From: Alphaproteobacteria bacterium
Lineage (GTDB): Bacteria; Pseudomonadota; Alphaproteobacteria; Rs-D84
Assembly: GCA_017935245.1 (NCBI GenBank)
Contig: JAGBHZ010000003.1
Coordinates: forward strand, 6,956-70,955
Length of the DNA: 64,000 nt
Direction of reading: 5' to 3'
The notes below the pieces were generated by a model, which saw only the letters and a list, made by a program, of their open reading frames with translations, was not told the DNA's origin and did no database searches. Shown piece after piece: positions 7,703-56,374 of the stretch (positions are counted from its first letter, which is position 1; every line of letters starts with the position of its first letter). The position numbers and the translations under genes are program-made.

Positions 7703-9478
7703 ATGAATATGTTTGATTCTTGTTTTTTGTGTCTGGATATTGGCACGTCGGGTGTGCGGGGTATTGCGCATCATGTAAAGTCGGGGCACAGGGCAAAATC
7801 TGCGGTGTTTTCTGTGGACAGTTATGATACAATTTTTGCAATTAAATCTGTTATTAATGAATTGGAACATCAAATTGGAAGAAATTTAGATTCTGCGTAT
7901 ATAACTGGAAATTTTGGGCCGTCGGTGTATAAAGCCGTGATGAAAAGTACCACATGGAACGGGGAACATAAAATTGTAAATTCAGATATAAAAAATCTGA
8001 TTTCGCAAATTGTGCCACCCGATGAATTTCAACCAATTCATATCGTGCCATTGGCGTACAGTCGGCCCGGCGCGCGGGATATGCGAAATCCGGTTGGTGC
8101 CGTGGATCGCCAATTGGCGGCGGTGTTTGGTACGATTTTTTATAGGCATGATAGATTAGATAATGTTTATTCTTTGATGCGACATGCATATATTCAGCCA
8201 AATGCGTTCTTTGACCCGCAATATTTACAAAATGCGGTGTTTAGAAAACATAAGCAAAATACAATGTTTATTGATTTTGGGGCGGAATTTACATCGGCGT
8301 CAATTTGGACAGATAGGGGGCCGGTGTGGCATGTGAAAATTCCAATTGGGGGAACAAAAATTACAACCGATATATCAGAAACACTGGGGGTGGATTTTGA
8401 CGCGGCCGAACGTATAAAACGTGCCGTTGCAGATTTAATACCAAAAGAAATGGATAGATTTACGCCGGCAGATACCGCGTATGGTTTTTCGCGTGGTGAT
8501 GTTAATGATATCATATTGCCAATAATGATTGATGTAATTGGACAAATTCGAGATGGTGGAAGTGTCGCAATTGAAAAATATAGGCCCACGCGGATTGTTA
8601 TTACCGGGGGTGGTGCCGAAATGGGCGGTGTGCGCGATTTAATTGAAAATACGTTTGCAGTCCCAACCGAGATGATGCAGGCCGATGCATCGGTACGGGC
8701 ATTGTCTGAATATGTATGGGAATTGTTTGCCGATAAACGTAATGCGTATCGTGCGCGACATGATAAAATCTATGGGATTGTTGATTCTGTAACGGGATTG
8801 TTTCGGCCAAAGAAAAAGAAACAAAAATCAAGATTTGTTCCAATTTTACCAAGTACGCTGTGTTTCAATATGACGCGTCCAGAAACATATTCGATGTTTA
8901 AATCGGGCGGTATTTCGATGATTCATGTCGATATTATGGATGGCTTTTATGTTGATAAAGTATCAGGGGGAATAAAACTAATTAAATTTATTAATTCGCA
9001 TACAGATGCACACTTGCACGTGCATTTAATGACCGAAAGTCCAAATGTATGGGCGGCGGATGCAATTGCCGCCGGGGCCGATACGGTTATTTTATCGACC
9101 AATACATCGGGTGTGCGGGATGCCGTGCGAACGGTGCGGGCGGCGGGAAAACGTGTGGGAATTGCGCTAAATCCAGATTCATCGGTTTCGTTGTTAAAAG
9201 ATATATTGCGCGACCTGGACGAAGTGATGATTATGACCGTTGCGCCCGGTGCGGCGGGCCAAGATTTTAGGCCAGATTGTTTGCATAAAATATCTGTGTT
9301 GGCGGCGACGCGTAAAAAGTACGGATTAAAATTCTTGATATCGGTTGATGGTGGAATAAATGACAAGACGGCCCAGATGTGCTGGGATGCGGGGGCGGAT
9401 TTGTTGGTTAGTGGCTCTTATTTAGCAAACAGTCCCGATTTCCCATTGGCGGTGCAAAGTTTGTTAAAACATGAATAA
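7703..9478 (+). CDS. Fusion protein: divergent FtsA-like actin-fold ATPase (aa 1 to about 370) plus ribulose-phosphate 3-epimerase (aa about 378-591)
   Basis: N-part: CLDIGTSGVRGIA (phosphate-1), IDFGAEFTSASI, IVITGGGAEMGGV, and position after ftsQ. C-part: ILPSTLCFN, HVDIMDG, HVHLM, MTVAPGAAGQ, VDGGIN (Rpe metal and catalytic motifs). Single uninterrupted 591-codon ORF. Confidence 0.8.
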   Translation: MNMFDSCFLCLDIGTSGVRGIAHHVKSGHRAKSAVFSVDSYDTIFAIKSVINELEHQIGRNLDSAYITGNFGPSVYKAVMKSTTWNGEHKIVNSDIKNLISQIVPPDEFQPIHIVPLAYSRPGARDMRNPVGAVDRQLAAVFGTIFYRHDRLDNVYSLMRHAYIQPNAFFDPQYLQNAVFRKHKQNTMFIDFGAEFTSASIWTDRGPVWHVKIPIGGTKITTDISETLGVDFDAAERIKRAVADLIPKEMDRFTPADTAYGFSRGDVNDIILPIMIDVIGQIRDGGSVAIEKYRPTRIVITGGGAEMGGVRDLIENTFAVPTEMMQADASVRALSEYVWELFADKRNAYRARHDKIYGIVDSVTGLFRPKKKKQKSRFVPILPSTLCFNMTRPETYSMFKSGGISMIHVDIMDGFYVDKVSGGIKLIKFINSHTDAHLHVHLMTESPNVWAADAIAAGADTVILSTNTSGVRDAVRTVRAAGKRVGIALNPDSSVSLLKDILRDLDEVMIMTVAPGAAGQDFRPDCLHKISVLAATRKKYGLKFLISVDGGINDKTAQMCWDAGADLLVSGSYLANSPDFPLAVQSLLKHE

Positions 9479-9534
9479 ATAAACACTTGATTTTATGTCT
9501 AGATAATATATAATCGTAAAGCTTTGAATTTGTT

Positions 9535-9609
9535 GCGGGCATAGTACAAAGGCTAGTATGCAAGCCTTCCAAGCTTGAAATGCGGGTTCGATTCCCGCTG
9601 CCCGCACCA
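9535..9609 (+). tRNA. tRNA-Gly (anticodon TCC)
   Basis: Acceptor GCGGGCA/TGCCCGC, anticodon arm CAAGC-CTTCCAA-GCTTG, T-arm GCGGG-TTCGATT-CCCGC, encoded CCA. Confidence 0.9.
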
Positions 9610-9640
9610 AAAAACATTTTATATGTTTTTTGGACAGATT

Positions 9641-9727
9641 GGGCGTGCGCCGGAGTTGGAGAGCCGGGGCAGACTGTAAATCTGTTGGCTTAAGCCTGAG
9701 CTGGTTCGAATCCAGCCACTCCCACCA
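9641..9727 (+). tRNA. tRNA-Tyr (anticodon GTA), long variable arm
   Basis: Anticodon arm GCAGA-CTGTAAA-TCTGT, variable arm TGGCTTAAGCCTGA, T-arm GCTGG-TTCGAAT-CCAGC, encoded CCA. Atypical C4:U69 mismatch and C8. Confidence 0.78.
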
Positions 9728-9732
9728 GAAAT

Positions 9733-9765
9733 AAAATCACCCCATTCGGGGTGGTTTTATTTTTG
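9733..9765 (+). terminator. Intrinsic terminator after tRNA-Tyr
   Basis: CACCCC-ATTC-GGGGTG followed by GTTTTATTTTT. Confidence 0.7.
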
Positions 9766-9769
9766 GTGA

Positions 9770-9908
9770 ATGTGGTTCATGGATTTAAACCACGCAATCA
9801 TAAGATTGCCGGTTCGACAATGAGTAAGCGAGAACAAGCAGTGCGCAGTTCGAGTGCTAACGAATGCCCCGCAGGACATTTGTCCGAGGGAATCAGCCAC
9901 TCCCACCA
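9770..9908 (+). ncRNA. Candidate structured small RNA or tRNA-Tyr 3'-end remnant
   Basis: Hairpins GTGGTT..AACCAC, GCAATC-ATAA-GATTGC and GGAC-ATTT-GTCC. Ends in AGCCACTCCCACCA, identical to the last 14 nt of tRNA-Tyr, and is followed by its own terminator. Confidence 0.3.
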
Positions 9909-9910
9909 TT

Positions 9911-9938
9911 AAAATACCCCACATTGTGTGGGTTTTTT
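9911..9938. terminator. Bidirectional intrinsic terminator
   Basis: AAAATACCCCACATTGTGTGGGTTTTTT, placed between the RNA region and the stop of the minus-strand OMP gene at 9940. Confidence 0.7.
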
Positions 9939-9939
9939 G

Positions 9940-11088
9940 TTAAAACATACGTACGATTTCAAGCATTGCCTGGTGCATGTGGTGGGTGTATGTCGGGATG
10001 TTGGAATCTTGGTATGCGTATGTGTAACTGAATGCGGGAATAAAGTTATAAAGGTTTATATAACTGTTATAAATTCGGGTGTAAATTTGGTATGTGTTGT
10101 CGCGTCTGGTGGCGTGATGAAATGTGTTGTCCAGGATAAATGTGCCAGATGTATGGTATGTGTTATGTGAATACATGGCGTTTATATAGAAATTAAATCC
10201 ATATGGAATCTTGTAAAAATATCCAATCGCAATGCGGCCTGTGTCAAACCCCAGGGCGGAAAGGCTTGTGTCATTATGTGATATGGCGGCGGTAAATGAA
10301 ATAAAACTGTGATTGGTCAGGTAATATTTTGGGTGCACATAGAATGTCCAATCAAATCCAGACAGAATATCGTTTATTTTTTCGCTATGATAATGGTTCC
10401 TTTGAATATCCAGGGCGATGTTTGTAAATAATCTGGATGGAAATTGCAGTGTGCCACCAATGCGCGCGCCATACGTTGTATTGTAAAGGTGATTGTTATA
10501 AAAGCGGGTGCCAAAAGATGGCTGGATATAAACATCACCGTGGGAAAATATATATCGTGGGCCGATGGCAAATCGGGCGGAATAATCCGTCGGAATATCG
10601 TTTGATGTGTTTAAAATTGCGCCACCAAATGTTGTGCGTAAGCCAAAGTTTTTATATATATTTGTGTAATAATTTACTGCGCCATTTATGTTTAGGCCAA
10701 ATCCAGATAAATCTGGTTCTAGTTCGGAACAAGCGGGCCCAGATGGGGTTTGTATACATTCATGGCGATTGGATGGGGCGAAATTAATACTGCTGTCGGG
10801 GATGGTGCCGATGCCAAATTCAATATCCCATTTTTTTAATCGACGAATATCTGACAGGTATTTATTTATATCGTTGGGTGCGTCGCATTGTGCGGTGGCA
10901 AATTCAAAATTGTATTGCGCGGCGGAATATTGATTTGTGTCGAAATATAGTTTTGCTAATTCATATCGTGCATCCAAATTGGATGGATTTTTGCGAACGG
11001 TATCAATATATGATGTGAGACTATCGGATGCACAAACATTGTGTGAAAAAATTGCAAAAATACAAAAAATCAAACATATGTTTCGCAT
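9940..11088 (-). CDS. Outer-membrane beta-barrel protein, Slam-like (DUF560-type: short TPR plus barrel)
   Basis: Signal peptide ending VCA|SD. TPR-like NLDARYELAKLYFDTNQYSAAQYNFEFA. Tyr/Asn/Thr-rich alternating strands. C-terminus RRDNTYQIY...FIPAFSYTYAYQDSN...LEIVRMF ends in an aromatic residue. Confidence 0.55.
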   Translation of the reverse strand: MRNICLIFCIFAIFSHNVCASDSLTSYIDTVRKNPSNLDARYELAKLYFDTNQYSAAQYNFEFATAQCDAPNDINKYLSDIRRLKKWDIEFGIGTIPDSSINFAPSNRHECIQTPSGPACSELEPDLSGFGLNINGAVNYYTNIYKNFGLRTTFGGAILNTSNDIPTDYSARFAIGPRYIFSHGDVYIQPSFGTRFYNNHLYNTTYGARIGGTLQFPSRLFTNIALDIQRNHYHSEKINDILSGFDWTFYVHPKYYLTNHSFISFTAAISHNDTSLSALGFDTGRIAIGYFYKIPYGFNFYINAMYSHNTYHTSGTFILDNTFHHATRRDNTYQIYTRIYNSYINLYNFIPAFSYTYAYQDSNIPTYTHHMHQAMLEIVRMF

Positions 11089-11133
11089 ATCTTGCCCATT
11101 GTATCGGGGGACAAGATATATCGCAAAAGGATG

Positions 11134-12735
11134 TTATTCTTCGATTTCTATTTCATCGATGTATGAACGGTTAACAGATTCCAATTTTATCGGTGTGAAT
11201 TCAGATACGGTTATGGGGTCGCGGTCATCTTCGGGTAAAATTGTTATCGCGTCGGTGCGGGATACTGGGGCGGTGTGCGTGATATTGGCACCATATGTTT
11301 TTGATTTATATTTTTCCAAAAATCGTTCAGGAATACGGATATAGTTATTAGGATTAATACCAGTTGATTCAATATCCATTGATGGGGCGGGGACAATGTG
11401 TCGCTGTTCAATATTATATACGGGTTTTATAAAGTTTATTGGGGCCGAACGAACATCAGATGTTGTGCCATCGCCATTGATTTTTACAATACGCAATCCG
11501 CGTTCATTGTCGCCGGTTGGCTTTAATCTGAACAGGCCGTCTGTACCGACATAACCACTGGGGTCCAGCAGGTATGATGCATCAGATTTATCGGAATAAA
11601 TCATGCCGATTGCCATGTTTGTGGCGTCATATCCAATTGTTGCCAGGCGATTTGGTGTCGCGCCAGATATTGTTTCATATAAAATGGCAAAATTGTCATC
11701 AATTGCCGGTAATACCGCGTATTTTGCCCCAGTCATTGTTATGTCAGATGTGATGTCTGTGCCATCCCACATGGCGGTGCCATAATATGATGCATCACGT
11801 GAATTTACGCCAAAGTATCTTAGAAATGATGCCAGTTTTTTTGTGTCGTCTGCGTTCCCCAGGAATAATATCGCATTGTATGGCAGTTTGCCCAGGGTGT
11901 CGGTGCGGGAAATCTTTTCAAGTTGGGCGTTAAGATTAGAATATTCCAAAGCCGTCAGGCGTTCATTTGTTAATATGTCCCCCAATATTTCACGGGCACG
12001 GTTGTTTGCCGCGGTGCGTGATGCGTTTAATGATGCCTTTTGTGATGTGTCTTTGATAGAATTGGCATCGCCGGCGGTGTAATAAAATATACCGCGCAGG
12101 CTAACGTTATTTATTGAGGCCGCATTTTTTGCCGTGCCCGCCATAAGGTGGCCAGACTGATTATCAGGGGCCAAAATGATAAAGCCGTTCACATTATCGT
12201 CGCGCATTTGTTTTACGATTGTTTCAACACTGTTTGTGGGCATTAATGCCATGGTTATAACGCCATTGCCGACCGCCGTTGCGTCGGATGTAAATGTTAA
12301 TGCGGGGGTGTTTGTTGGTTTCGTATCACGTAAAATTCGTGCGTTGTCTGCAAATAATGGGCCAATGATTATTTCGGGATTTGTGGATAATGCACCAGTG
12401 ATTGCGTCGGTTGGATTTGTGGCGGTGTCATAAAACGATACATACAGGTTTGGGCGATTTTGTTGTAACACGGCGGTTTCAACCGATGTGCGAATCGTTT
12501 TGCCAATTTCACCATTTGGCCCAGATGTTGGCAGTAATACCGCCATACGCCGTATGTCATTTTCATCGTATTGGTGTGTGCCATATTCATCGGCGGGGCG
12601 ACCATACTGCATCGCGGTTGGTGTGCCGACCGTTGTGGCATCATAACCATCAAACCAATCAATCGTGTCAGATGTCGTTGGTGCACACCCAGACAGTATG
12701 GCAATCAATCCGAAAATCTTAAAAAATGTATTCAT
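11134..12735 (-). CDS. LpoA-like (LppC/PBP-activator family) lipoprotein with about 120-aa C-terminal extension
   Basis: Lipobox ILSGC|A. VAVLLPTSGPNGEIGKTIRTSVETA...VSFYDT...IIIGPLFADNARIL matches the periplasmic-binding-fold LpoA core. Divergent from rsmI, as in E. coli yraL/yraM. Confidence 0.65.
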   Translation of the reverse strand: MNTFFKIFGLIAILSGCAPTTSDTIDWFDGYDATTVGTPTAMQYGRPADEYGTHQYDENDIRRMAVLLPTSGPNGEIGKTIRTSVETAVLQQNRPNLYVSFYDTATNPTDAITGALSTNPEIIIGPLFADNARILRDTKPTNTPALTFTSDATAVGNGVITMALMPTNSVETIVKQMRDDNVNGFIILAPDNQSGHLMAGTAKNAASINNVSLRGIFYYTAGDANSIKDTSQKASLNASRTAANNRAREILGDILTNERLTALEYSNLNAQLEKISRTDTLGKLPYNAILFLGNADDTKKLASFLRYFGVNSRDASYYGTAMWDGTDITSDITMTGAKYAVLPAIDDNFAILYETISGATPNRLATIGYDATNMAIGMIYSDKSDASYLLDPSGYVGTDGLFRLKPTGDNERGLRIVKINGDGTTSDVRSAPINFIKPVYNIEQRHIVPAPSMDIESTGINPNNYIRIPERFLEKYKSKTYGANITHTAPVSRTDAITILPEDDRDPITVSEFTPIKLESVNRSYIDEIEIEE

Positions 12736-12789
12736 ATGCATTGAAATATCCATTTATTTTTGTATTATTTTACTATAAAAGGATTTCTA

Positions 12790-13590
12790 ATGCAATCAGG
12801 GCTTTATATTGTTGGCACACCAATCGGAAATTTATCAGATATGTCGCCACGTGCAATCGATGTTTTGCGCAGTGTGGATTTAATCGCGGCCGAAGATACA
12901 CGGGTGTTTGGGAAACTGGCCATGCATTTTGATATAAAAACACCACGTGTGTCATGTCATGAATATAATGAACGTGATGTTGTTGATGGATTGATTCAAA
13001 AAATTCAGGGTGGACAATCGATTGCAGTTGTATCTGATGCGGGAATGCCGGGGATAAGTGATCCGGGATTTCGTATTGTGCGTGCGGCACGCGCGGCGGG
13101 TGTGGATGTGTTTGTTGTGCCGGGGGCAACCGCGGTAATTAGTGCACTGGTATTATCTGGGTTCCCAACAGACAGATTTACGTTCTGTGGTTTCGTGGAC
13201 GAAAAGAAATTACGTGATGATAATAAAATACGTCATACAATTGTGTACTATGAAAGTCCAAATCGTATCATGAAAACAATTGCAGAATTTGCGCGTGTTA
13301 TGCCCGAACGACAAATTGCAATTGTGCGTGAAATTACCAAGATTCATGAACAGGTCATAATTGGATATCCCGCAGATTTAATGCGTATAGAGCCGCCACG
13401 TGGGGAAATTGTTATTGTGGTGGCGCCGGCGCCAGATAAAAAAATGTCTGATGATGAAATTTCTGAAATTGTAAATGATATTGTTGGGGGGCGTACAAAA
13501 AGTGCCGCCGCAGAACTGGCCGCGCGCAGTGGTATTTCAAAAAAAGAAGCGTACAAGCGTTTATTGGAACAAGGGGGGGCAAATGATTAA
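12790..13590 (+). CDS. rsmI: 16S rRNA (cytidine1402-2'-O)-methyltransferase RsmI
   Basis: LYIVGTPIGNLSDMSPRAIDVLRSVDLIAAEDTR, VSDAGMPGISDPG, VVPGATA, YESPNR. Confidence 0.9.
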   Translation: MQSGLYIVGTPIGNLSDMSPRAIDVLRSVDLIAAEDTRVFGKLAMHFDIKTPRVSCHEYNERDVVDGLIQKIQGGQSIAVVSDAGMPGISDPGFRIVRAARAAGVDVFVVPGATAVISALVLSGFPTDRFTFCGFVDEKKLRDDNKIRHTIVYYESPNRIMKTIAEFARVMPERQIAIVREITKIHEQVIIGYPADLMRIEPPRGEIVIVVAPAPDKKMSDDEISEIVNDIVGGRTKSAAAELAARSGISKKEAYKRLLEQGGAND

Positions 13591-37026: not shown

Positions 37027-38433
37027 ATGAAACATATTTTATATGTGTTGTTTTTGTCATGTTTTGTTTCGGGCGCATTTGCAGATGGTACAGATACAAA
37101 TGCAAAATGCCGTGGTTTTAGTTTTGATTACAAATCAGGCCAGGTTGGTTCGGTTGCCTGTGATGGTATGGTGGGAATTGATGCGACAAATACTGCATCA
37201 TGTTCATGTACGTGTAACTCGGGAAACTGGGAAAAATGTACGGTATCATCATGCAAACCGGGGTATAATTTTAATGCAAATTATACGGGCTGTGTCCCCA
37301 GTTACAGTGGCGCCGTGGTTGATAAAAGTGGGACGCCATTGGCATTTGTTACAATTTTATCCAGTCAAGATCGTACAAATTCTTCGTATTTTTATGAAAC
37401 AGATGTTAATGGAAAATTTACAATTCCAACCGATCAATTCCCAGATGATGGTATGGCACTGTTTTCGATAGTTGGGTGCAAGGACAAGACATTGAAATTA
37501 ACATCCGGGATGCGTGTGGTGTTGGATTGTAGTAATGAACTGGATGGGGCAACATTGGTTGAGTGTGGGGCGGATACACTAAAAAAATTAAAGGCCAGTG
37601 CCGCAAAATTTAATCCAGAAACAGATAAGTGCGAAGCGACAACATGTATTGCCGGTGCATATTTTGTGTACAGTAAAGATAATGCGTTCATGGGATATTG
37701 CGAAGATAACTCTTATTGTGGGGCGGGTAAGAAGTTGGTAACAGACGGGTATAAGACATCGCTGGAATGTGTGCCAGATGTTAAATTGCCGGTCTTGGAT
37801 GAAGATATCGAAATAATTGATGAAGAAGTCGAAATAGATGATGATTTGTTCCGTGATTTAAAGGAAGATGATTTTGTGGTAAATAAATTGCCACTTATTC
37901 CGGTTTTGGATGATGATATAGAAATAATCGATGAAGAAGTCGAAATAGATGATGATTTGTTCAAGAATCTGGAAGATTCAAAACTGGATATAAAAATTAT
38001 GAATCCAGATCAGCCAAAAATTGATGCATGTAATAAAAAATATGGTGCACGCTGGAATTCTGTAACACGTACATGTGAATGCATAGACAGGCAAAATACA
38101 GATTGGAATTCTGATAAAACGGCGTGTGTAGAAACCCAAGATGCAAAAATACGCCGTCGTGAATCGGCGATTACAGGTGCGGTTTCAACATTGGATGTAG
38201 CGTTGTCTGATTTAGCCGTCAGCAAATGGAAAACCGCGGATGGTAAATTTAATACGGCGCGTTTGGCATCGGATACGATTGCGGGTGTTGTATTGGGTAC
38301 GGCGGGTGGATTAATAACCAGTCATGTTGTAAAAAAGCACCAGGTAGAAGAAGGTTTTGAAGATATAAAGTGTGTGATTGGTGGCCAAAGCGTTGCCGGA
38401 TGGGGCGATGAATTTAATGTTGGTGTTCATTAA
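37027..38433 (+). CDS. Secreted, C-terminally anchored Cys-rich protein with acidic tandem repeat
   Basis: Signal peptide ...VSGAFA|DG. Cys-rich N-region, CarboxypepD_reg-like GAVVDKSGTPLAFVTILS...TDVNGKFTIP. Two copies of P(V/I)LD(E/D)DIEIIDEEVEIDDDLF. C-terminal TM IAGVVLGTAGGLITSHVV. Confidence 0.6.
   Translation: MKHILYVLFLSCFVSGAFADGTDTNAKCRGFSFDYKSGQVGSVACDGMVGIDATNTASCSCTCNSGNWEKCTVSSCKPGYNFNANYTGCVPSYSGAVVDKSGTPLAFVTILSSQDRTNSSYFYETDVNGKFTIPTDQFPDDGMALFSIVGCKDKTLKLTSGMRVVLDCSNELDGATLVECGADTLKKLKASAAKFNPETDKCEATTCIAGAYFVYSKDNAFMGYCEDNSYCGAGKKLVTDGYKTSLECVPDVKLPVLDEDIEIIDEEVEIDDDLFRDLKEDDFVVNKLPLIPVLDDDIEIIDEEVEIDDDLFKNLEDSKLDIKIMNPDQPKIDACNKKYGARWNSVTRTCECIDRQNTDWNSDKTACVETQDAKIRRRESAITGAVSTLDVALSDLAVSKWKTADGKFNTARLASDTIAGVVLGTAGGLITSHVVKKHQVEEGFEDIKCVIGGQSVAGWGDEFNVGVH
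37789..37962 (+). repeat. 111-nt-period tandem duplication inside the 468-aa gene
   Basis: CCGGTCTTGGATGAAGATATCGAAATAATTGATGAAGAAGTCGAAATAGATGATGATTTGTTC (37789-37851) versus a near-identical copy at 37900-37962. Confidence 0.85.
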
Positions 38434-38461
38434 AAAATTCCCCGCAGTTGCGGGGATTTTT
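38434..38461 (+). terminator. Intrinsic terminator
   Basis: AAAAATTCCCCGCAGTTGCGGGGATTTTT. Near-identical hairpin to the one at 55129. Confidence 0.75.
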
Positions 38462-38521
38462 ATCAATGTGCAATTAATGATTAATATTAATACTGCGATA
38501 AACTTTTATTTATCAAAGCAT

Positions 38522-38550
38522 TTGCCTAATCTAAAATATTCAGTTATAAT
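38522..38550 (+). promoter_or_regulatory. Sigma70-like promoter of cassette 2
   Basis: TTGCCT (38522-27), 17 nt spacer, TATAAT (38545-50). Confidence 0.55.
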
Positions 38551-38556
38551 ATGTGT

Positions 38557-38796
38557 GTTATGGTGTTTTGCCATAATGGGGTGTAGTAACCCGATATAAG
38601 GCGTCTGGATGAAAATAACGAAATATCCTGAATTTCGGGCGCGCCATGTGGCGTGTTTTTTCGTATAGGGTCCAAGCGATAAAAAAACTCCTGATGTATT
38701 ACGTGTCAGGAGGGTTGCGAATATATTGAATAAGCACACAATTCCTTATAATTGTTACTAACCTCCTGACCACTCGAATTTATTCGGTGGTTTTTT
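38557..38796 (+). promoter_or_regulatory. Structured 5' leader / attenuator RNA (copy 1 of a conserved leader)
   Basis: P1 TTATGG-7nt-CCATAA (38558-76). CTCCTGA (38688-94) / TCAGGAGGGTT (38706-16) / AACCTCCTGA (38760-69) alternative pairings. Terminator CCACTCGAA-TTTA-TTCGGTGG plus T6 (38770-96), 25 nt before the ATG. Confidence 0.55.
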
Positions 38797-38821
38797 AATA
38801 ATACAAAATAGGGGGAAAACA

Positions 38822-39259
38822 ATGAAAAAAATTTTAACAATAACAGCGTTGTGTGGGATTTTTGCGGTACCCGCGGGCGCAGTTCAAAAATGCGTGGCGT
38901 TGAACGACGGACCAGATACAGATATGAATTGGTGTTACAATGGTGGAACTAATTTTGGTGATGTTGATTGGAGTAATGCGTGTGATGTATTCACCGGTGC
39001 AACTATAGGTGTATCTGGTGTTTCGGCCTGTTCTGATCGACCCGGTGGTGAACCAATTGGGGCCTTAACTGTATCAGATAATGCGACAGATAACATATAT
39101 TGTTGGTGTATGATGACTGTACCTGCGGTATCGTGGTGGGTGTTTGCTGGTGAGAATACTACAAACTGCCTACACAGTTGCGGGTACACCTGTGCGGAAT
39201 ATTTTGCGGATACGGATTCAGGATTACGATCTGTGATATTGTCAAACCTGGTTAATTAA
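38822..39259 (+). CDS. Secreted Cys-rich protein, type A (A2)
   Basis: GGGGGA SD. Signal peptide ...AVPAGA|VQKCVAL. 9 Cys in the mature part. Paralogue of A1. Confidence 0.65.
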   Translation: MKKILTITALCGIFAVPAGAVQKCVALNDGPDTDMNWCYNGGTNFGDVDWSNACDVFTGATIGVSGVSACSDRPGGEPIGALTVSDNATDNIYCWCMMTVPAVSWWVFAGENTTNCLHSCGYTCAEYFADTDSGLRSVILSNLVN

Positions 39260-39265
39260 AGGGTA

Positions 39266-39544
39266 ATGCGAATGAAACGAATTATATTTTTTCTTATGTG
39301 TGTGCCGATTTTGGCGCACGCCGCCGCACCAAGTGTCAGTTGTCCATCGGGTTATATCGCAATTGACATGCCGGATATAATAATTGCAACATCATGCCCC
39401 AGTGGCTATGTTTCCGTTGGTACGGCGGAATCGTGCCTGGTATCCAATCCCGCGGGAACATGCATAATGTATGCGCCGGTGGGGATGTCATATACAGACG
39501 ATACTGGTACATACGAATTTACAGATGCGTGCCCAATGTCATAG
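39266..39544 (+). CDS. Secreted Cys-rich protein, type B (B2)
   Basis: Signal peptide; SCPSGYIAID...ATSCPSGYVSVGTAESCLVSNPAGTCIMYAPVGMSYTDDTGTYEFTDACPMS. Starts 6 nt after A2. Confidence 0.7.
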   Translation: MRMKRIIFFLMCVPILAHAAAPSVSCPSGYIAIDMPDIIIATSCPSGYVSVGTAESCLVSNPAGTCIMYAPVGMSYTDDTGTYEFTDACPMS

Positions 39545-49593: not shown

Positions 49594-49672
49594 ATTAGTG
49601 GCTAGTGTAAGTGATTAGTGGTAATTGGCGATACACACAAATACCACGATAAATAAATGTTAATATAAGTAT

Positions 49673-49701
49673 TTGCGTAAATAGAAACATTTGGTTATAA
49701 T
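49673..49701 (+). promoter_or_regulatory. Sigma70-like promoter
   Basis: TTGCGT (49673-78), 17 nt spacer, TATAAT (49696-701). Confidence 0.55.
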
Positions 49702-49707
49702 TTTATT

Positions 49708-49906
49708 GTTATGGTGGTTTTGCCATAATGGGGTGTCATAGCCCGTGATTTCGGCGCCATGTATTAATTATGTGGTGATAAATATTCGTTCTCCAATCGT
49801 TTGGTTGGAGGGTTGTGAATAATACGTGTTTATCACGTAAAATAAGCACACTATACCGAATTATAGCTATGAACCTCCAACCGCTTGAATTTCTAAGCGG
49901 TTTTTT
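49708..49906 (+). promoter_or_regulatory. Structured 5' leader / attenuator RNA (copy 2 of the conserved leader)
   Basis: P1 TTATGG-8nt-CCATAA (49709-28), GGGGTGT..CCCG, CGCCATGT. CTCCAA (49791-96) / TTGGAGGGTT (49805-14) / AACCTCCAA (49872-80). Terminator AACCGCTT-GAATTTCT-AAGCGGTT plus T6 (49879-906). Confidence 0.55.
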
Positions 49907-49935: not shown

Positions 49936-50547
49936 ATGAATAAATTTAAAATCTTTATAATTTCTGGAATACTGTATGGGGCTGCTTTTGGCGATTCTTG
50001 GGCAGAAGTGCGACCAATAAATTTGACTATAGAGGGCAGTGCTTATAGATGTTACGTAAATAGTGATGGGGACATTTTTTGTAATCAAAATGAAGATAGT
50101 CCGGCAATGATGGGAACACAGGTTTGCAGTAAGTATATAGAATATGAATATGTTGACTGTGACCCAACTGTTGAAAATTGTAAAATAATTTCTTTAGAAG
50201 GACGTACATACTGTATTGGAATAGGGGATTGTACCCCTGGGAATAGCACGTGTTACAATGGAACGCGTCCATTTAAGCTATGCAGTGAATGGTCTTTTAC
50301 CTGTGAAGAGATAGTAGATGGCCCAATGGAAAATATAGATTATGTAAATGACACTTTTACCTGTATTCAGGGGTATTATAGGGATAAGATGGAATGTAAG
50401 CTTTGTCCGTCGTCGGGTGAGGTGTATGGAACGACAAAATCCAGTGGCGCAACCAGTATTACAGAATGCTATATCCCATCTGGTACAGAATTTTCAGATT
50501 CTTCTGGAACGTGGGAATATGGCCAGAACTGTTATTACAGTGAATAA
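49936..50547 (+). CDS. Secreted Cys-rich protein with ephrin-receptor/TNFR-like (GCC2/GCC3-type) Cys spacing
   Basis: AGGAGG SD. Signal peptide MNKFKIFIISGILYGAAFG. C-terminal CIQGYYRDKMECKLCPSSGEVYGTTKSSGATSITECYIPSG. Confidence 0.55.
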   Translation: MNKFKIFIISGILYGAAFGDSWAEVRPINLTIEGSAYRCYVNSDGDIFCNQNEDSPAMMGTQVCSKYIEYEYVDCDPTVENCKIISLEGRTYCIGIGDCTPGNSTCYNGTRPFKLCSEWSFTCEEIVDGPMENIDYVNDTFTCIQGYYRDKMECKLCPSSGEVYGTTKSSGATSITECYIPSGTEFSDSSGTWEYGQNCYYSE

Positions 50548-50756
50548 AACAGGGCGATAAATTTATCGCCCTGTTTTTTACAAATTTTGTGATAATATGC
50601 GCATTATGAAAAAGTAATCAAAGATTTTGTCCGACTGTATGTCGGGGGCGTTAATATGCTTGGCTGACAGGTGTTTTTATGAAAATATCCATAAATACAT
50701 TTATCTTTGTTTTTTGGGGATGTTTATGCTATACTTTTTTCAAAAGGAGTATATTT

Positions 50757-55157: not shown

Positions 55158-55213
55158 AAATTTCAAAGTGCAATTAATAATTAATATTAATGCTGCGATA
55201 TATAATAAGTATC

Positions 55214-55242
55214 TTGTATTTTGGTGAAAAATGGTTTATAAT
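55214..55242 (+). promoter_or_regulatory. Sigma70-like promoter of cassette 3
   Basis: TTGTAT (55214-19), 17 nt spacer, TATAAT (55237-42). TTATAATATGTGT is shared with the cassette 2 promoter. Confidence 0.5.
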
Positions 55243-55248
55243 ATGTGT

Positions 55249-55527
55249 TGAGTTCACAGGGATGTGGATTCGGGGTCGTCAAAAAGCCCATCAGCAATCG
55301 GTGCAAGAAAATTTGTACCGTATCCGCACATGAAAATTGGCGCGGAATGCGTCTTTTTTTGTGTTTATAACCCGATGTATTCGTGCGATGGTCGCACGGA
55401 CCACTTTCGTACGTCGGGGTGCCGTCGGTTATACAACAGGGCGCATTGCGCCCGAAAACCGGCGGGGTCAAAATTGCTGTTGATTTTTTGAACACCCCGA
55501 CCGCCATATTCCCGTGGCGGTGTTTTT
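55249..55527 (+). promoter_or_regulatory. Structured 5' leader with internal and terminal terminator hairpins
   Basis: GGCGC-GGAAT-GCGTC plus T7 (55339-60). GTCGGGGTG (55413-21) is complementary to CACCCCGAC (55493-501), which abuts the terminator ACCGCCA-TATTCCCG-TGGCGGT plus T5 (55500-27). Confidence 0.45.
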
Positions 55528-55541
55528 ATTGCGTGGGGGAA

Positions 55542-55970
55542 ATGATGCGGAAGATTTTATTGCTGTTTATGCTAATTACTGTATCGGCAAATGCGGCAAC
55601 AATGTGCGTGCCGGATTTTTCACAGATGTCTGATAAATGCACAGTTGTTAGTTATACAAAAAATACGTGGACAGTGAACTGTAATGGGGTTGAGGTTTCT
55701 GGAATAGCAATCCCAGGACAAAAAACATCTGCGGGTTTTGCTTATGATATAGAAGAGATTGTTTACTTTACGGCGTACTGCAATTGTTTAATGCAGCATC
55801 CGGTTGTGGGACAGTATTTATTGCCATTACCTGAACCCAATGTGTGTAGTGAGTGGGCCGGAATGTCTTGTGGTCAGTTTTGTGCACATGTTTTTGTGCC
55901 AAGATGTGGGTTTTCTAAGTGTAATCCGTATGCTGACCTGGGGATAAGTTGCACACAAGGATCGGGGTAA
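55542..55970 (+). CDS. Secreted Cys-rich protein, divergent type A (A3)
   Basis: Signal peptide MMRKILLLFMLITVSANA. Shares W.VNC, V.G, YCNC and C..FCA..F spacing with A1/A2. Confidence 0.55.
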   Translation: MMRKILLLFMLITVSANAATMCVPDFSQMSDKCTVVSYTKNTWTVNCNGVEVSGIAIPGQKTSAGFAYDIEEIVYFTAYCNCLMQHPVVGQYLLPLPEPNVCSEWAGMSCGQFCAHVFVPRCGFSKCNPYADLGISCTQGSG

Positions 55971-55975
55971 AATTC

Positions 55976-56374
55976 ATGAAAAAAATATTTATTGTTTATG
56001 CCGGTATTATGCCTGTGATTGCGAATGCTGTGGCGTGTCCAAGTGGTATGATGGCGGTGTCGTATGATGATTTTGCCCCAGTGGTATTTGGGGTATGCCC
56101 CGCGGGCTATGTTGCACATGATTTGCAGAATGTTTGTGCAAATGATTCATCGGGGGTGTGTTGGCTGGTGCGATTGGCGTGCGGGGCGGGGATAACACAA
56201 ATGAAAACATCGGCTGGGGTTGATTTTCCGATTTATGCAACGCGGCAAACAAATCCGTCGCTAAGTGTTAGGTATAATAATACAACATGTTATATGGATT
56301 TAGAGCAAGGCAAACAATCCGGTACAATTAATCTAAATTATAACGGTGTTGTTTATCATATGATTCCGAACTAG
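55976..56374 (+). CDS. Secreted Cys-rich protein, divergent type B (B3)
   Basis: Signal peptide. ACPSGMMAVSYDD and VCPAGYVAHD echo the CPSGY repeats of B1/B2, with an extra about 60-aa C-terminal tail. Confidence 0.55.
   Translation: MKKIFIVYAGIMPVIANAVACPSGMMAVSYDDFAPVVFGVCPAGYVAHDLQNVCANDSSGVCWLVRLACGAGITQMKTSAGVDFPIYATRQTNPSLSVRYNNTTCYMDLEQGKQSGTINLNYNGVVYHMIPN

Follow-up and report, generated by a model that had tools for sequence, protein, structure and literature searches.

In the window analysed here, a stretch of 64,000 nucleotides of contig JAGBHZ010000003.1 (assembly GCA_017935245.1, Alphaproteobacteria, lineage Rs-D84), genes for secreted cysteine-rich proteins lie behind long leaders that carry a transcription terminator of their own, and the question raised by the locus is what these leaders do. 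Candidatus Enterousia (order Rs-D84) comprises uncultured gut Alphaproteobacteria with genomes of less than 1 Mb and no respiration (PMC12306168). A preliminary description of the window had proposed that two of its untranslated regions (UTRs) are copies of one structured RNA, a candidate novel riboswitch or attenuator. By comparing them with related loci, all of which come from metagenome assemblies, we find that the leaders form a genuine, previously uncatalogued family of cis-regulatory RNAs; the mechanism, in which two mutually exclusive folds would decide whether transcription proceeds into the genes, is what we infer from them.

The two leaders of the window (38557-38796, copy 1; 49708-49906, copy 2) are noncoding and structured, as are their relatives, whose size ranges over ~180-240 nt, and each lies 3' of a conserved promoter. 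The preliminary description had placed both regions correctly, and the blocks that they share are real: the window contains the 19-mer TTTTGCCATAATGGGGTGT at two sites only (38566 and 49718), against a chance expectation of 0.08 and with two matches in 0/100 shuffles, and blastn aligns the two copies over a 5' block (E 2.8e-12) and a 3' block (E 3.9e-4), with no third sequence-similar copy within the window. Altogether 25 distinct copies were collected, scoring 38-99 bits against a covariance model (CM) that was derived from a curated core alignment. Scanning the whole of GTDB with the 19-mer yielded eight real loci, all in metagenome-assembled genomes (MAGs) of gut Alphaproteobacteria including Candidatus Enterousia spp., and a metagenome scan one real copy only; further copies came from contigs encoding homologues of the downstream proteins, found with a single sequence and a family alignment, and gapped patterns run on IMG/VR added four copies on virus-like contigs (the virus-like IMG/VR contigs with leader copies being L052, at 7800-13200, L058, L066, L069 and L070). 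A viral scan with a 19-mer from the loop of helix P5 was set aside, as 22 of its 24 matches represented one phage lineage with a common 24-nt chance match. The CM detected no further copies in ~600 kb of fetched sequence, the window included.

Rfam 15, searched with the whole window at the gathering threshold, returned two tRNAs only, and relaxed searches of copy 1 (E up to 10) and copy 2 (E up to 1) gave nothing relevant on either, so that the claim of a conserved structured leader without an Rfam family holds. Weak Leu_leader and rimP matches fell on the terminator of the upstream gene (38432-38543), outside the leader.

The dominant fold of the leader starts with a 5' hairpin, P1, and continues with a long-range closing helix (GGGGU with ACCUC, P2a and P2b) that encloses three further helices, P3, P4 and P5. 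Its parts are listed here for both copies, with G1 for the GGGGU segment, A, B and C for three mutually complementary segments, and B-ext and C-ext for the 9-nt extended forms of B and C.

38522-38550, + strand: copy 1 promoter; -35 TTGCCT (38522-38527), 17-nt spacer, -10 TATAAT (38545-38550); 10/12 consensus matches by scan
38557-38577, + strand: copy 1 P1, the 5'-terminal hairpin; GUUAUGGU with GCCAUAAU, loop GUUUU; part of the minimum free energy (MFE) structure
38578-38601, + strand: copy 1 closing stack, 5' strand; G1 GGGGU (38578-82), a bulged G, P2a 5' UAGUAAC (38584-90), conserved CCG (38591-93), P2b 5' UAUAAGG (38595-601)
38602-38687, + strand: copy 1 P3 variable arm and A-rich linker, holding a terminator-like hairpin with U6 (38637-38661)
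38688-38713, + strand: copy 1 P4; segment A CUCCUGA (38688-94), loop, segment B UCAGGAG (38706-12); B-ext GUCAGGAGG (38705-38713)
38714-38743, + strand: copy 1 P5; G.UGC with GCAC, near-invariant purine-rich loop GAAUAUAUUGAAUAAG, then junction ACAAUU
38744-38770, + strand: copy 1 closing stack, 3' strand; P2b 3' CCUUAUA (38744-50), AUU, P2a 3' GUUACUA (38754-60), ACCUC (38761-65), C-ext CCUCCUGAC (38762-38770)
38770-38796, + strand: copy 1 intrinsic terminator; CCACUCGAAU-UU-AUUCGGUGG, then U6; hairpin of -7.3 kcal/mol, directly readable
49673-49701, + strand: copy 2 promoter; TTGCGT (49673-78), 17-nt spacer, TATAAT (49696-49701); read from the sequence
49708-49754, + strand: copy 2, 5' part; P1 (49708-29), G1 GGGGU (49730-34), P2a 5' UCAUAGC (49736-42), CCG (49743-45), P2b 5' AUUUCGG (49748-54)
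49792-49849, + strand: copy 2, middle; A CUCCAA(UC) (49792-99), B-ext GGUUGGAGG (49803-11), P5 with an inserted hairpin P5a (49824-39)
49856-49906, + strand: copy 2, 3' part; P2b 3' CCGAAU (49856-61), UAUA, P2a 3' GCUAUGA (49866-72), ACCUC (49873-77), C-ext CCUCCAACC (49874-82), terminator
49881-49906, + strand: copy 2 terminator; CCGCUU..AAGCGG (49881-49900), then U6 (49901-06); called by scan

In copy 1, GGGGU (38578-82) pairs with ACCUC (38761-65), P2a (38584-90) with 38754-60 and P2b (38595-601) with 38744-50; the conserved CCG faces AUU in an internal loop, and the closing helix is followed on its 3' side by UGA and then by the terminator. This long-range fold is the MFE structure of both copies, with shuffle z-scores of -3.8 and -6.2. 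Among the blocks that the preliminary description had treated as shared, TTTCGG..GCGCCATGT turns out not to be equivalent, since it makes up the P2b 5' strand and P3 in copy 2 and lies inside P3 in copy 1. P3 varies in length from 0 to ~95 nt across copies and is hairpin-forming in each, and P5 is interrupted by an extra hairpin in what we term type 2 copies (for example, copy 2). The hairpin within P3, GCGCCAUGUGGCGUG followed by UUUUUU (38637-38661; also in L006, L015 and L020), was called by the terminator scan and is conserved in five copies; it could be an early pause or termination checkpoint.

Covariation supports the closed fold, and the claim of covariation made from two copies is borne out by the additional homologues. 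P1 occurs as at least six different complementary sequences with double changes at 7/8 pairs; P2a, in nine different sequences, pairs without mismatch in 16 of the first 17 copies; P2b has 13 different sequences, all complementary and fixed in position within 0-2 nt; and the P5 pairs covary as C-G, U-A and U-G around a loop conserved in at least 20 copies. The hand-curated core alignment has 97.8% of its cells paired and double changes at 16 pairs, 0/500 shuffles being as good and slid controls reaching 38-55%, while the CM alignment of the 25 copies is 95.8% paired, with double changes at 26/42 pairs, 141 compensated cells and again 0/500 shuffles as good. RNAalifold recovers P1, P2, P2a, P2b and the terminator on its own. 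Approximately 25 unpaired nucleotides are near-invariant (the P5 loop, CCG, AUU, ACAAUU and the bulged G). Three further interactions were considered and dropped because neither complementarity nor covariation was consistent: base pairing of the P1 loop (UUUUG) with the A-rich linker as a pseudoknot, pairing of that linker with the terminator U-run, and mimicry of the terminator 3' arm by the P1 5' arm.

The conservation is not that of a coding sequence. The spacing of conserved anchors takes all values modulo 3 (11/6/4 over 21 copies), such that no reading frame is preserved and therefore neither strand can be coding. Long stop-free antisense stretches do occur in many copies, but 1-nt indels fall inside conserved blocks and the anchor spacing does not keep to multiples of 3; on the sense strand, the AUG in AUGGGG has no Shine-Dalgarno (SD) sequence and opens frames of 6 to >60 codons, none of them conserved. 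Of the possible inputs named in the preliminary description, a leader peptide is accordingly excluded, and a T-box found no backing either, with no RF00230 match and no such motif on reading.

The closed fold is accompanied by a second one. The complementarity of CTCCTGA, TCAGGAGG and CCTCCTGA in copy 1, replaced by CTCCAA, TTGGAGG and CCTCCAA in copy 2, had been correctly recognised, as had the ability of the middle segment to pair either upstream or downstream: B can pair with A, and its match with C is perfect in 25/25 copies. More precisely, the 9-nt B-ext (GUCAGGAGG, or GGUUGGAGG in types 2 and 3) and C-ext (CCUCCUGAC, or CCUCCAACC in types 2 and 3) are complementary at every position in the 21 copies scored, which were anchored on GGAGG and CCUCC, and the same was read directly from the four copies on viral contigs. 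B-ext begins with the last base of the P4 loop, an invariant G that pairs with C-ext in every copy and is unpaired with A in 8/21, which points to selection for B:C and not for A:B; likewise, a mismatch in A:B is tolerated in L069, whereas none is found in B:C. In the alternative fold, which is 99.3% paired, B:C meets P5 and a small local hairpin in a three-way junction. In the main family the variation of B:C amounts essentially to one event, type 1 versus types 2 and 3; over five B:C haplotypes, which include that of a third leader described below, pairing is 100% with compensatory changes at 5/9 pairs, and 1/500 shuffles was as good. Because C pairs with G1 in the closed fold and with B in the alternative, the two folds are mutually exclusive, and comparative analysis shows both of them to be under selection, a pattern that marks attenuators and riboswitches. 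The three-segment attenuator logic first proposed stands in part but was incomplete, the main fold having been missed: C also pairs with the 5' GGGGU, as 3' strand of the long-range closing helix, which is continued by P2a and P2b, two hypervariable helices that stay complementary throughout.

The arrangement of promoter, terminator and gene suggests what the two folds might act on. The promoter pattern TTGC(C/G)T-17-TATAAT proposed for both copies is present at both, though the -35 element of copy 2 (TTGCGT) matches only 3/6 consensus positions and received no call from the scanner; its position is nonetheless conserved family-wide, and in related copies TTGCnn-17-TATAAT is preceded by a conserved A/T-rich block, AAACTTTTATTTATC. 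An intrinsic terminator (hairpin and U-run) is found in 24/25 copies, L070 having no U-run, and the hairpin sequences covary among copies. C-ext takes in the first 1 nt (type 1, copy 1) or 2 nt (types 2 and 3, copy 2) of the terminator stem, so that the overlap claimed in the preliminary description is real and of very small extent. The terminator had also been placed 25-30 nt before the SD, a distance that applies to the ATG instead: from the end of the T-run it is 25 nt (copy 1) or 29 nt (copy 2) to the ATG, and ~15-17 nt to the SD. In every copy the U-run is 25-40 nt from the ATG, with no room for a second promoter; given the strong promoter and the terminator in 24/25 copies, expression therefore requires read-through.

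Several other elements surround these promoters and terminators. A 38-nt element (GTGCAATTAATGATTAATATTAATACTGCGAT-like, rich in ATTAAT palindromes) occurs at 38463-38500 and 55163-55200 with 92% identity, 5' of the promoters of cassettes 1 and 3 and at both sites directly 3' of the terminator of the preceding gene; an operator and an insertion scar are both conceivable. Arrays of three to four heptamers (TTAGTGG / CACTAAC-like, ~7 nt spacing) sit 60-110 nt 5' of many leader promoters in either orientation (window 49595-49622; L006, L010, L011, L020, L034), and could be transcription-factor sites or remnants of mobile elements. Between the terminator U-run and the SD, an element GUUUUUUCGCGAAUAAAACAAAGAAAGGAG, not present in the window, is conserved in L001, L002, L005, L011, L014, L015, L034, L035 and L037; there, the U-run is able to pair with a downstream A-run around the palindrome UUCGCGAA.

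A third leader in the window, 5' of a further cassette, bears on whether the design itself is under selection. It is ~285 nt long and GC-richer, has its own promoter and terminator, and resembles the main family in sequence only at the promoter and start region; none of the fetched loci holds a homologue.

55214-55527, + strand: third leader; promoter 55214-42, leader 55243-55527; 5' of the third A/B cassette (55542-55970, 55976-56374)
55250-71, + strand: P1 hairpin
55272-76 with 55494-98, + strand: G1, GGGGU with ACCCC
55279-85 with 55485-91, + strand: P2a, UCAAAAA/UUUUUGA
55370-79 (A) with 55410-20, + strand: A:B hairpin
55413-21, + strand: B-ext GUCGGGGUG, exact Watson-Crick complement of C-ext CACCCCGAC (55493-501)
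55501-20, + strand: terminator, stem opened by the last C of C-ext, then UGUUUUU

A perfect 9-nt B:C match of this kind was seen in 37/20000 shuffles, and relative to the main family three B:C pairs are altered on both sides. Judged from its predicted helices, the third leader is an independent instance of the same switch design despite its unrelated sequence.

The genes behind the leaders are largely of one kind. In the window they are as follows.

38811-39544, + strand: copy 1 cargo; SD GGGGG (38811-15), A-family gene (38822-39259, 145 aa) and B-family gene (39266-39544, 92 aa), both products with signal peptide and Cys-rich
49936-50547, + strand: copy 2 cargo; secreted Cys-rich protein of 203 aa, B-family-related (GCC2/GCC3-like), monocistronic, with a strong terminator at 50550-50578

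Behind twenty copies lie genes for two Cys-rich proteins with signal peptides or for a B-like fusion (in copy 2, the 203-aa protein), in agreement with the idea of a module common to a secreted-protein cassette family. The cargo had been said to differ between the two copies; in fact the 203-aa protein and the second gene behind copy 1 are both members of the B family. A proteins have ~140-180 aa and a YCWC motif, and B proteins ~90-130 aa and a GCC2/GCC3-like sequence; the cargo gave no Pfam match above the curated cut-off and no NCBIfam match, A belonging to no family of either database, and the 76 relatives of A are all from Alphaproteobacteria MAGs. The confident AlphaFold model of the A protein (38822-39259; mean predicted local distance difference test, pLDDT, 83; predicted template modelling score, pTM, 0.75) has a beta-sheet core and two C-terminal helices, and since it found no match in the PDB better than E 0.86 it gives no functional clue; as modelled, it may represent a new fold. 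Among divergent 254-aa A-like homologues, L039 has no leader. Elsewhere the cargo varies: a minimal leader without P3 and with a GNRA-capped P1 lies 5' of a gene (L035:603-833) for a 76-aa XRE-like helix-turn-helix (HTH) protein, a candidate regulator of the regulon, at L035:603-1050 on the - strand; the copy on L052 follows genes for phage tail, endolysin, PLD-like and DNA-methylase proteins and heads a 316-aa secreted protein; and of two other viral-contig copies one is 5' of a non-secreted protein and one (L070) 5' of a membrane protein. The copies on virus-like contigs imply that the module also serves prophage or moron genes. No tie to genes for the metabolism or transport of a ligand was seen among the cargo examined.

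In relatives with 74-86% XerD identity, the cassette is absent at the syntenic TrxB-DnaJ-XerD site, and it is therefore an insertion with a patchy distribution; the synteny search yielded no extra leaders. Palindromic repeats (GTCATTCCGGxGCTTGACxCCGGAAxCCAGG ... GGGATGACAAAATTTTTTT) lie 5' of several cassettes (L034:9560-9720, L035:4150-4300, L037:9570-9730), and we take them to resemble those of Rickettsia and other Alphaproteobacteria. At 9535-9606 and 9641-9724 the window carries two neighbouring tRNA genes, the second of which has a long variable arm and scores low, at 39 bits, in Rfam.

The reading that we prefer, with a probability of roughly 0.55, is that the leader is a cis-acting two-state RNA, a transcription attenuator of riboswitch-like complexity that gates the downstream genes, 'riboswitch' being a candidate label only. 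From architecture, covariation and energetics together we infer termination as the regulated step, the exchange of C between G1 and B, and which fold means 'on'. Transcription would start ~7 nt 3' of TATAAT, at the G of GUUAUGG, and the nascent RNA would fold P1, P3, P4 (A with B) and P5, after which the 3' strand would zip onto the 5' strand via P2b, P2a and P2 (GGGGU with ACCUC) to give a closed five-helix domain. In this closed state nothing would compete with the adjoining hairpin and U-run, so that transcription would terminate, a leader of ~180-240 nt would be released and the genes would be off. In the alternative state B (GUCAGGAGG) would quit A and pair with C (CCUCCUGAC), the closing helix would open, and B:C, P5 and the small local hairpin would form the three-way junction; B:C would take 1-2 nt of a marginal terminator stem and shift the stem away from the U-run, and polymerase would read through the weakened terminator into the secreted-protein genes.

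The local energies are compatible with such an exchange, with a mean of -15.6 kcal/mol for the B:C duplex versus -10.5 for P4, and terminator hairpins fall from a mean of -7.1 kcal/mol to -4.7 when the overlapped nucleotides are removed (-1 to -4 in types 2 and 3, the weakest type 2 value being -1.1). B:C could thus plausibly cripple a marginal terminator, although its role as the antiterminator, as the preliminary description had it, is no more than plausible with an overlap of this size. Since B:C needs help to form, an input that opens or pre-empts the closed state is favoured over one that merely stabilises it; the closing stack of 18-20 bp also looks too stable for its formation to depend on a small ligand, which makes it more likely that the signal opens or pre-empts it. 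The trigger is most likely a trans-acting factor, or a ligand that recognises the invariant purine-rich P5 loop and the junction nucleotides.

A number of points weigh against the attenuator. In essentially all copies the MFE structure is the closed fold with terminator, which makes termination the default, and forcing B:C costs 2-20 kcal/mol, typically 10-16; P4 forms before C is transcribed, such that B:C needs strand displacement or a helper; the overlap between B:C and the terminator is only 1-2 nt, and B:C could stack on the terminator instead of blocking it; L070 has no U-run; the cargo (secreted Cys-rich proteins of unknown fold, an XRE-like HTH protein and prophage-adjacent genes) hints at no metabolite; the third leader has no conserved P5 loop motif, and hence a common ligand pocket is not evident; and the basis of the analysis is metagenome-assembled sequence.

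The leader can be compared with known attenuators. In trp and his leaders, segments pair as 1:2, 2:3 and 3:4, and the present leader shares with these and with PyrR and T-box attenuators the logic of an anti-antiterminator (A:B), an antiterminator (B:C) and a terminator; it differs in having no leader peptide and no T-box or PyrR signature, and in a fourth player, the 5' GGGGU with P2a and P2b, which competes for C. Leaders that serve dedicated antitermination factors (UpxY 5' UTRs of Bacteroides, LoaP/EAR leaders and phage put/nut sites) are likewise long conserved 5' UTRs of paralogous surface or secreted loci, prophages included, but those elements are not known to depend on a conserved pair of exclusive folds, and no gene for a NusG-like or N-like factor was associated with the leader at any locus examined.

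The rival that survives best is a special case of the attenuator, a classical small-molecule riboswitch in which the closed five-helix domain is the aptamer and its stabilisation by the ligand lets the terminator form, giving an OFF switch. We regard it as possible, if doubtful. The multi-helix junction with ~25 near-invariant unpaired nucleotides and the conservation of two exclusive folds are what such an RNA would show. Riboswitches for c-di-GMP generally occur in multiple copies 5' of extracellular proteins, GEMM controlling pili and secreted proteins with many copies per genome, and the leader resembles terminator-type riboswitches (such as c-di-GMP-I, GEMM) in this respect as well as in its covarying multi-helix domain, its closing-helix 3' strand with an alternative partner and its position abutting a terminator. 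It differs from them in that it has no known ligand or Rfam match, its closing stack is far longer, the partner B lies inside the domain and not downstream, and the overlap with the terminator is 1-2 nt. The host genome of less than 1 Mb (PMC12306168) probably encodes few protein regulators, a point in favour of a riboswitch. Against a small molecule stand the stability of the 18-20 bp closing stack without ligand, unlike the short ligand-dependent P1 of known riboswitches, the lack of association with any metabolic or transport gene, and the third leader, which keeps the switch helices without the candidate pocket motifs.

It is improbable that the leader is a constitutive structured 5' UTR, serving mRNA stabilisation or processing (as a 5' hairpin shield or RNase III substrate) with a leaky terminator and no switching. 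P1 at the extreme 5' end, the overwhelming preference for the closed fold, and a strong promoter in front of what is probably an abundant secreted protein would all suit such a function. It leaves unexplained, however, the perfection of B:C in 25/25 copies, the invariant loop G, the terminator nucleotides and the compensated version of the third leader, as well as the presence of a terminator between promoter and gene in 24/25 copies.

A further alternative takes the leader for an independent small RNA (sRNA) gene, with a terminated RNA of 180-240 nt or its B-to-C domain acting in trans via C-rich, anti-SD-like segments and the genes as passengers. Its model would be sRNA-Xcc1 (RF02221), whose ~88-nt transcripts are multi-copy and found on mobile elements (PMC2996969, PMC12189769), namely Xanthomonas integron cassettes, Xylella genomic islands and APSE phages, and which sits 5' of symE and ORF6N genes (bioRxiv 10.1101/2025.06.18.660453; 10.1101/2020.03.17.996009). 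The 3' half of the leader in its alternative fold is, like sRNA-Xcc1, a three-way junction with a 9-bp SD-like G-rich/CCUCC-like closing helix and two hairpins, followed by U's; B and C fall on the positions of the RF02221 closing helix where G and C are conserved; and both RNAs are multi-copy and directly 5' of small genes on variable or mobile DNA. The minimal copy L035:877-949 scores 31.1 bits against RF02221 (E 5e-4), below the gathering score of 53, in an alignment that places B:C on the closing helix and P5 and the local hairpin on the two inner hairpins. As a positive control, L067:6468-6552 on a GC-rich viral contig is a genuine sRNA-Xcc1 (67.4 bits) directly 5' of an ORF6N/Rha-like gene, which fits sRNA-Xcc1 often being a 5' leader; the identity of its closing helix with B:C was discounted as independent evidence, as the search pattern demanded that sequence.

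The two RNAs also differ: the inner hairpins are not the same, sRNA-Xcc1 is described as a trans-acting sRNA and not as a switch, and only the leader has an additional 5' domain of 100-150 nt (P1, GGGGU, P2a, P2b, P3 and A), which has no counterpart in the description of that family and makes a competing fold with strong covariation, and a separate terminator hairpin. Thus, while the leader's own promoter and terminator, its junction topology, the sub-threshold L035 match and the existence of a true sRNA-Xcc1 with the same closing-helix sequence could all be those of an independent sRNA, we consider this very unlikely. The window copies have no RF02221 match (searched up to E 10 for copy 1 and E 1 for copy 2); leader and gene are one transcription unit, as the gene lacks its own promoter and begins 25-40 nt past the U-run in every copy; and in the favoured fold no C-rich segment is left unpaired. 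Moreover, cis and trans roles are compatible with each other.

That the conserved blocks are not RNA at all, but recombination sites or operators of a duplicated mobile cassette or traces of antisense or leader-peptide coding, as the cassettes at different housekeeping loci, their absence from the syntenic site in close relatives, the prophage-like contigs and the stop-free antisense stretches might suggest, is effectively refuted by compensatory double substitutions at 26 pairs that only RNA pairing explains, by anchor spacings of all values modulo 3, and by an AUG in AUGGGG that has no SD and opens peptides of unrelated length.

If the attenuator is the right reading, one may tentatively go further and see in the leaders a class of signal-responsive switch built around an sRNA-Xcc1-like junction, whose 5' domain would hold the junction open, with the terminator active, until a cue arrives in the form of a host or partner ligand or a dedicated RNA-binding factor. 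Should this be true, the widespread sRNA-Xcc1 RNAs of mobile elements would be cis-acting expression platforms and not trans-acting sRNAs. The present family provides the first link of a switch-like leader to that poorly understood group of RNAs from integrons, phages and islands. With 25 copies and an unrelated leader of the same design, it also gives RNA biology a well-supported example of selection acting on both of two exclusive folds, in which the switching hypothesis is directly testable with a few compensatory mutants. Gene regulation in Candidatus Enterousia, and its interaction with host or partner microbes, are almost unknown. The leader occurs in several copies per genome and heads nearly all members of a two-protein family of secreted Cys-rich proteins, and is therefore probably the main control point of the extracellular repertoire; if the switch is as proposed, a genome of less than 1 Mb would coordinate its whole secreted A/B repertoire, and some prophage cargo as well, via one RNA module.

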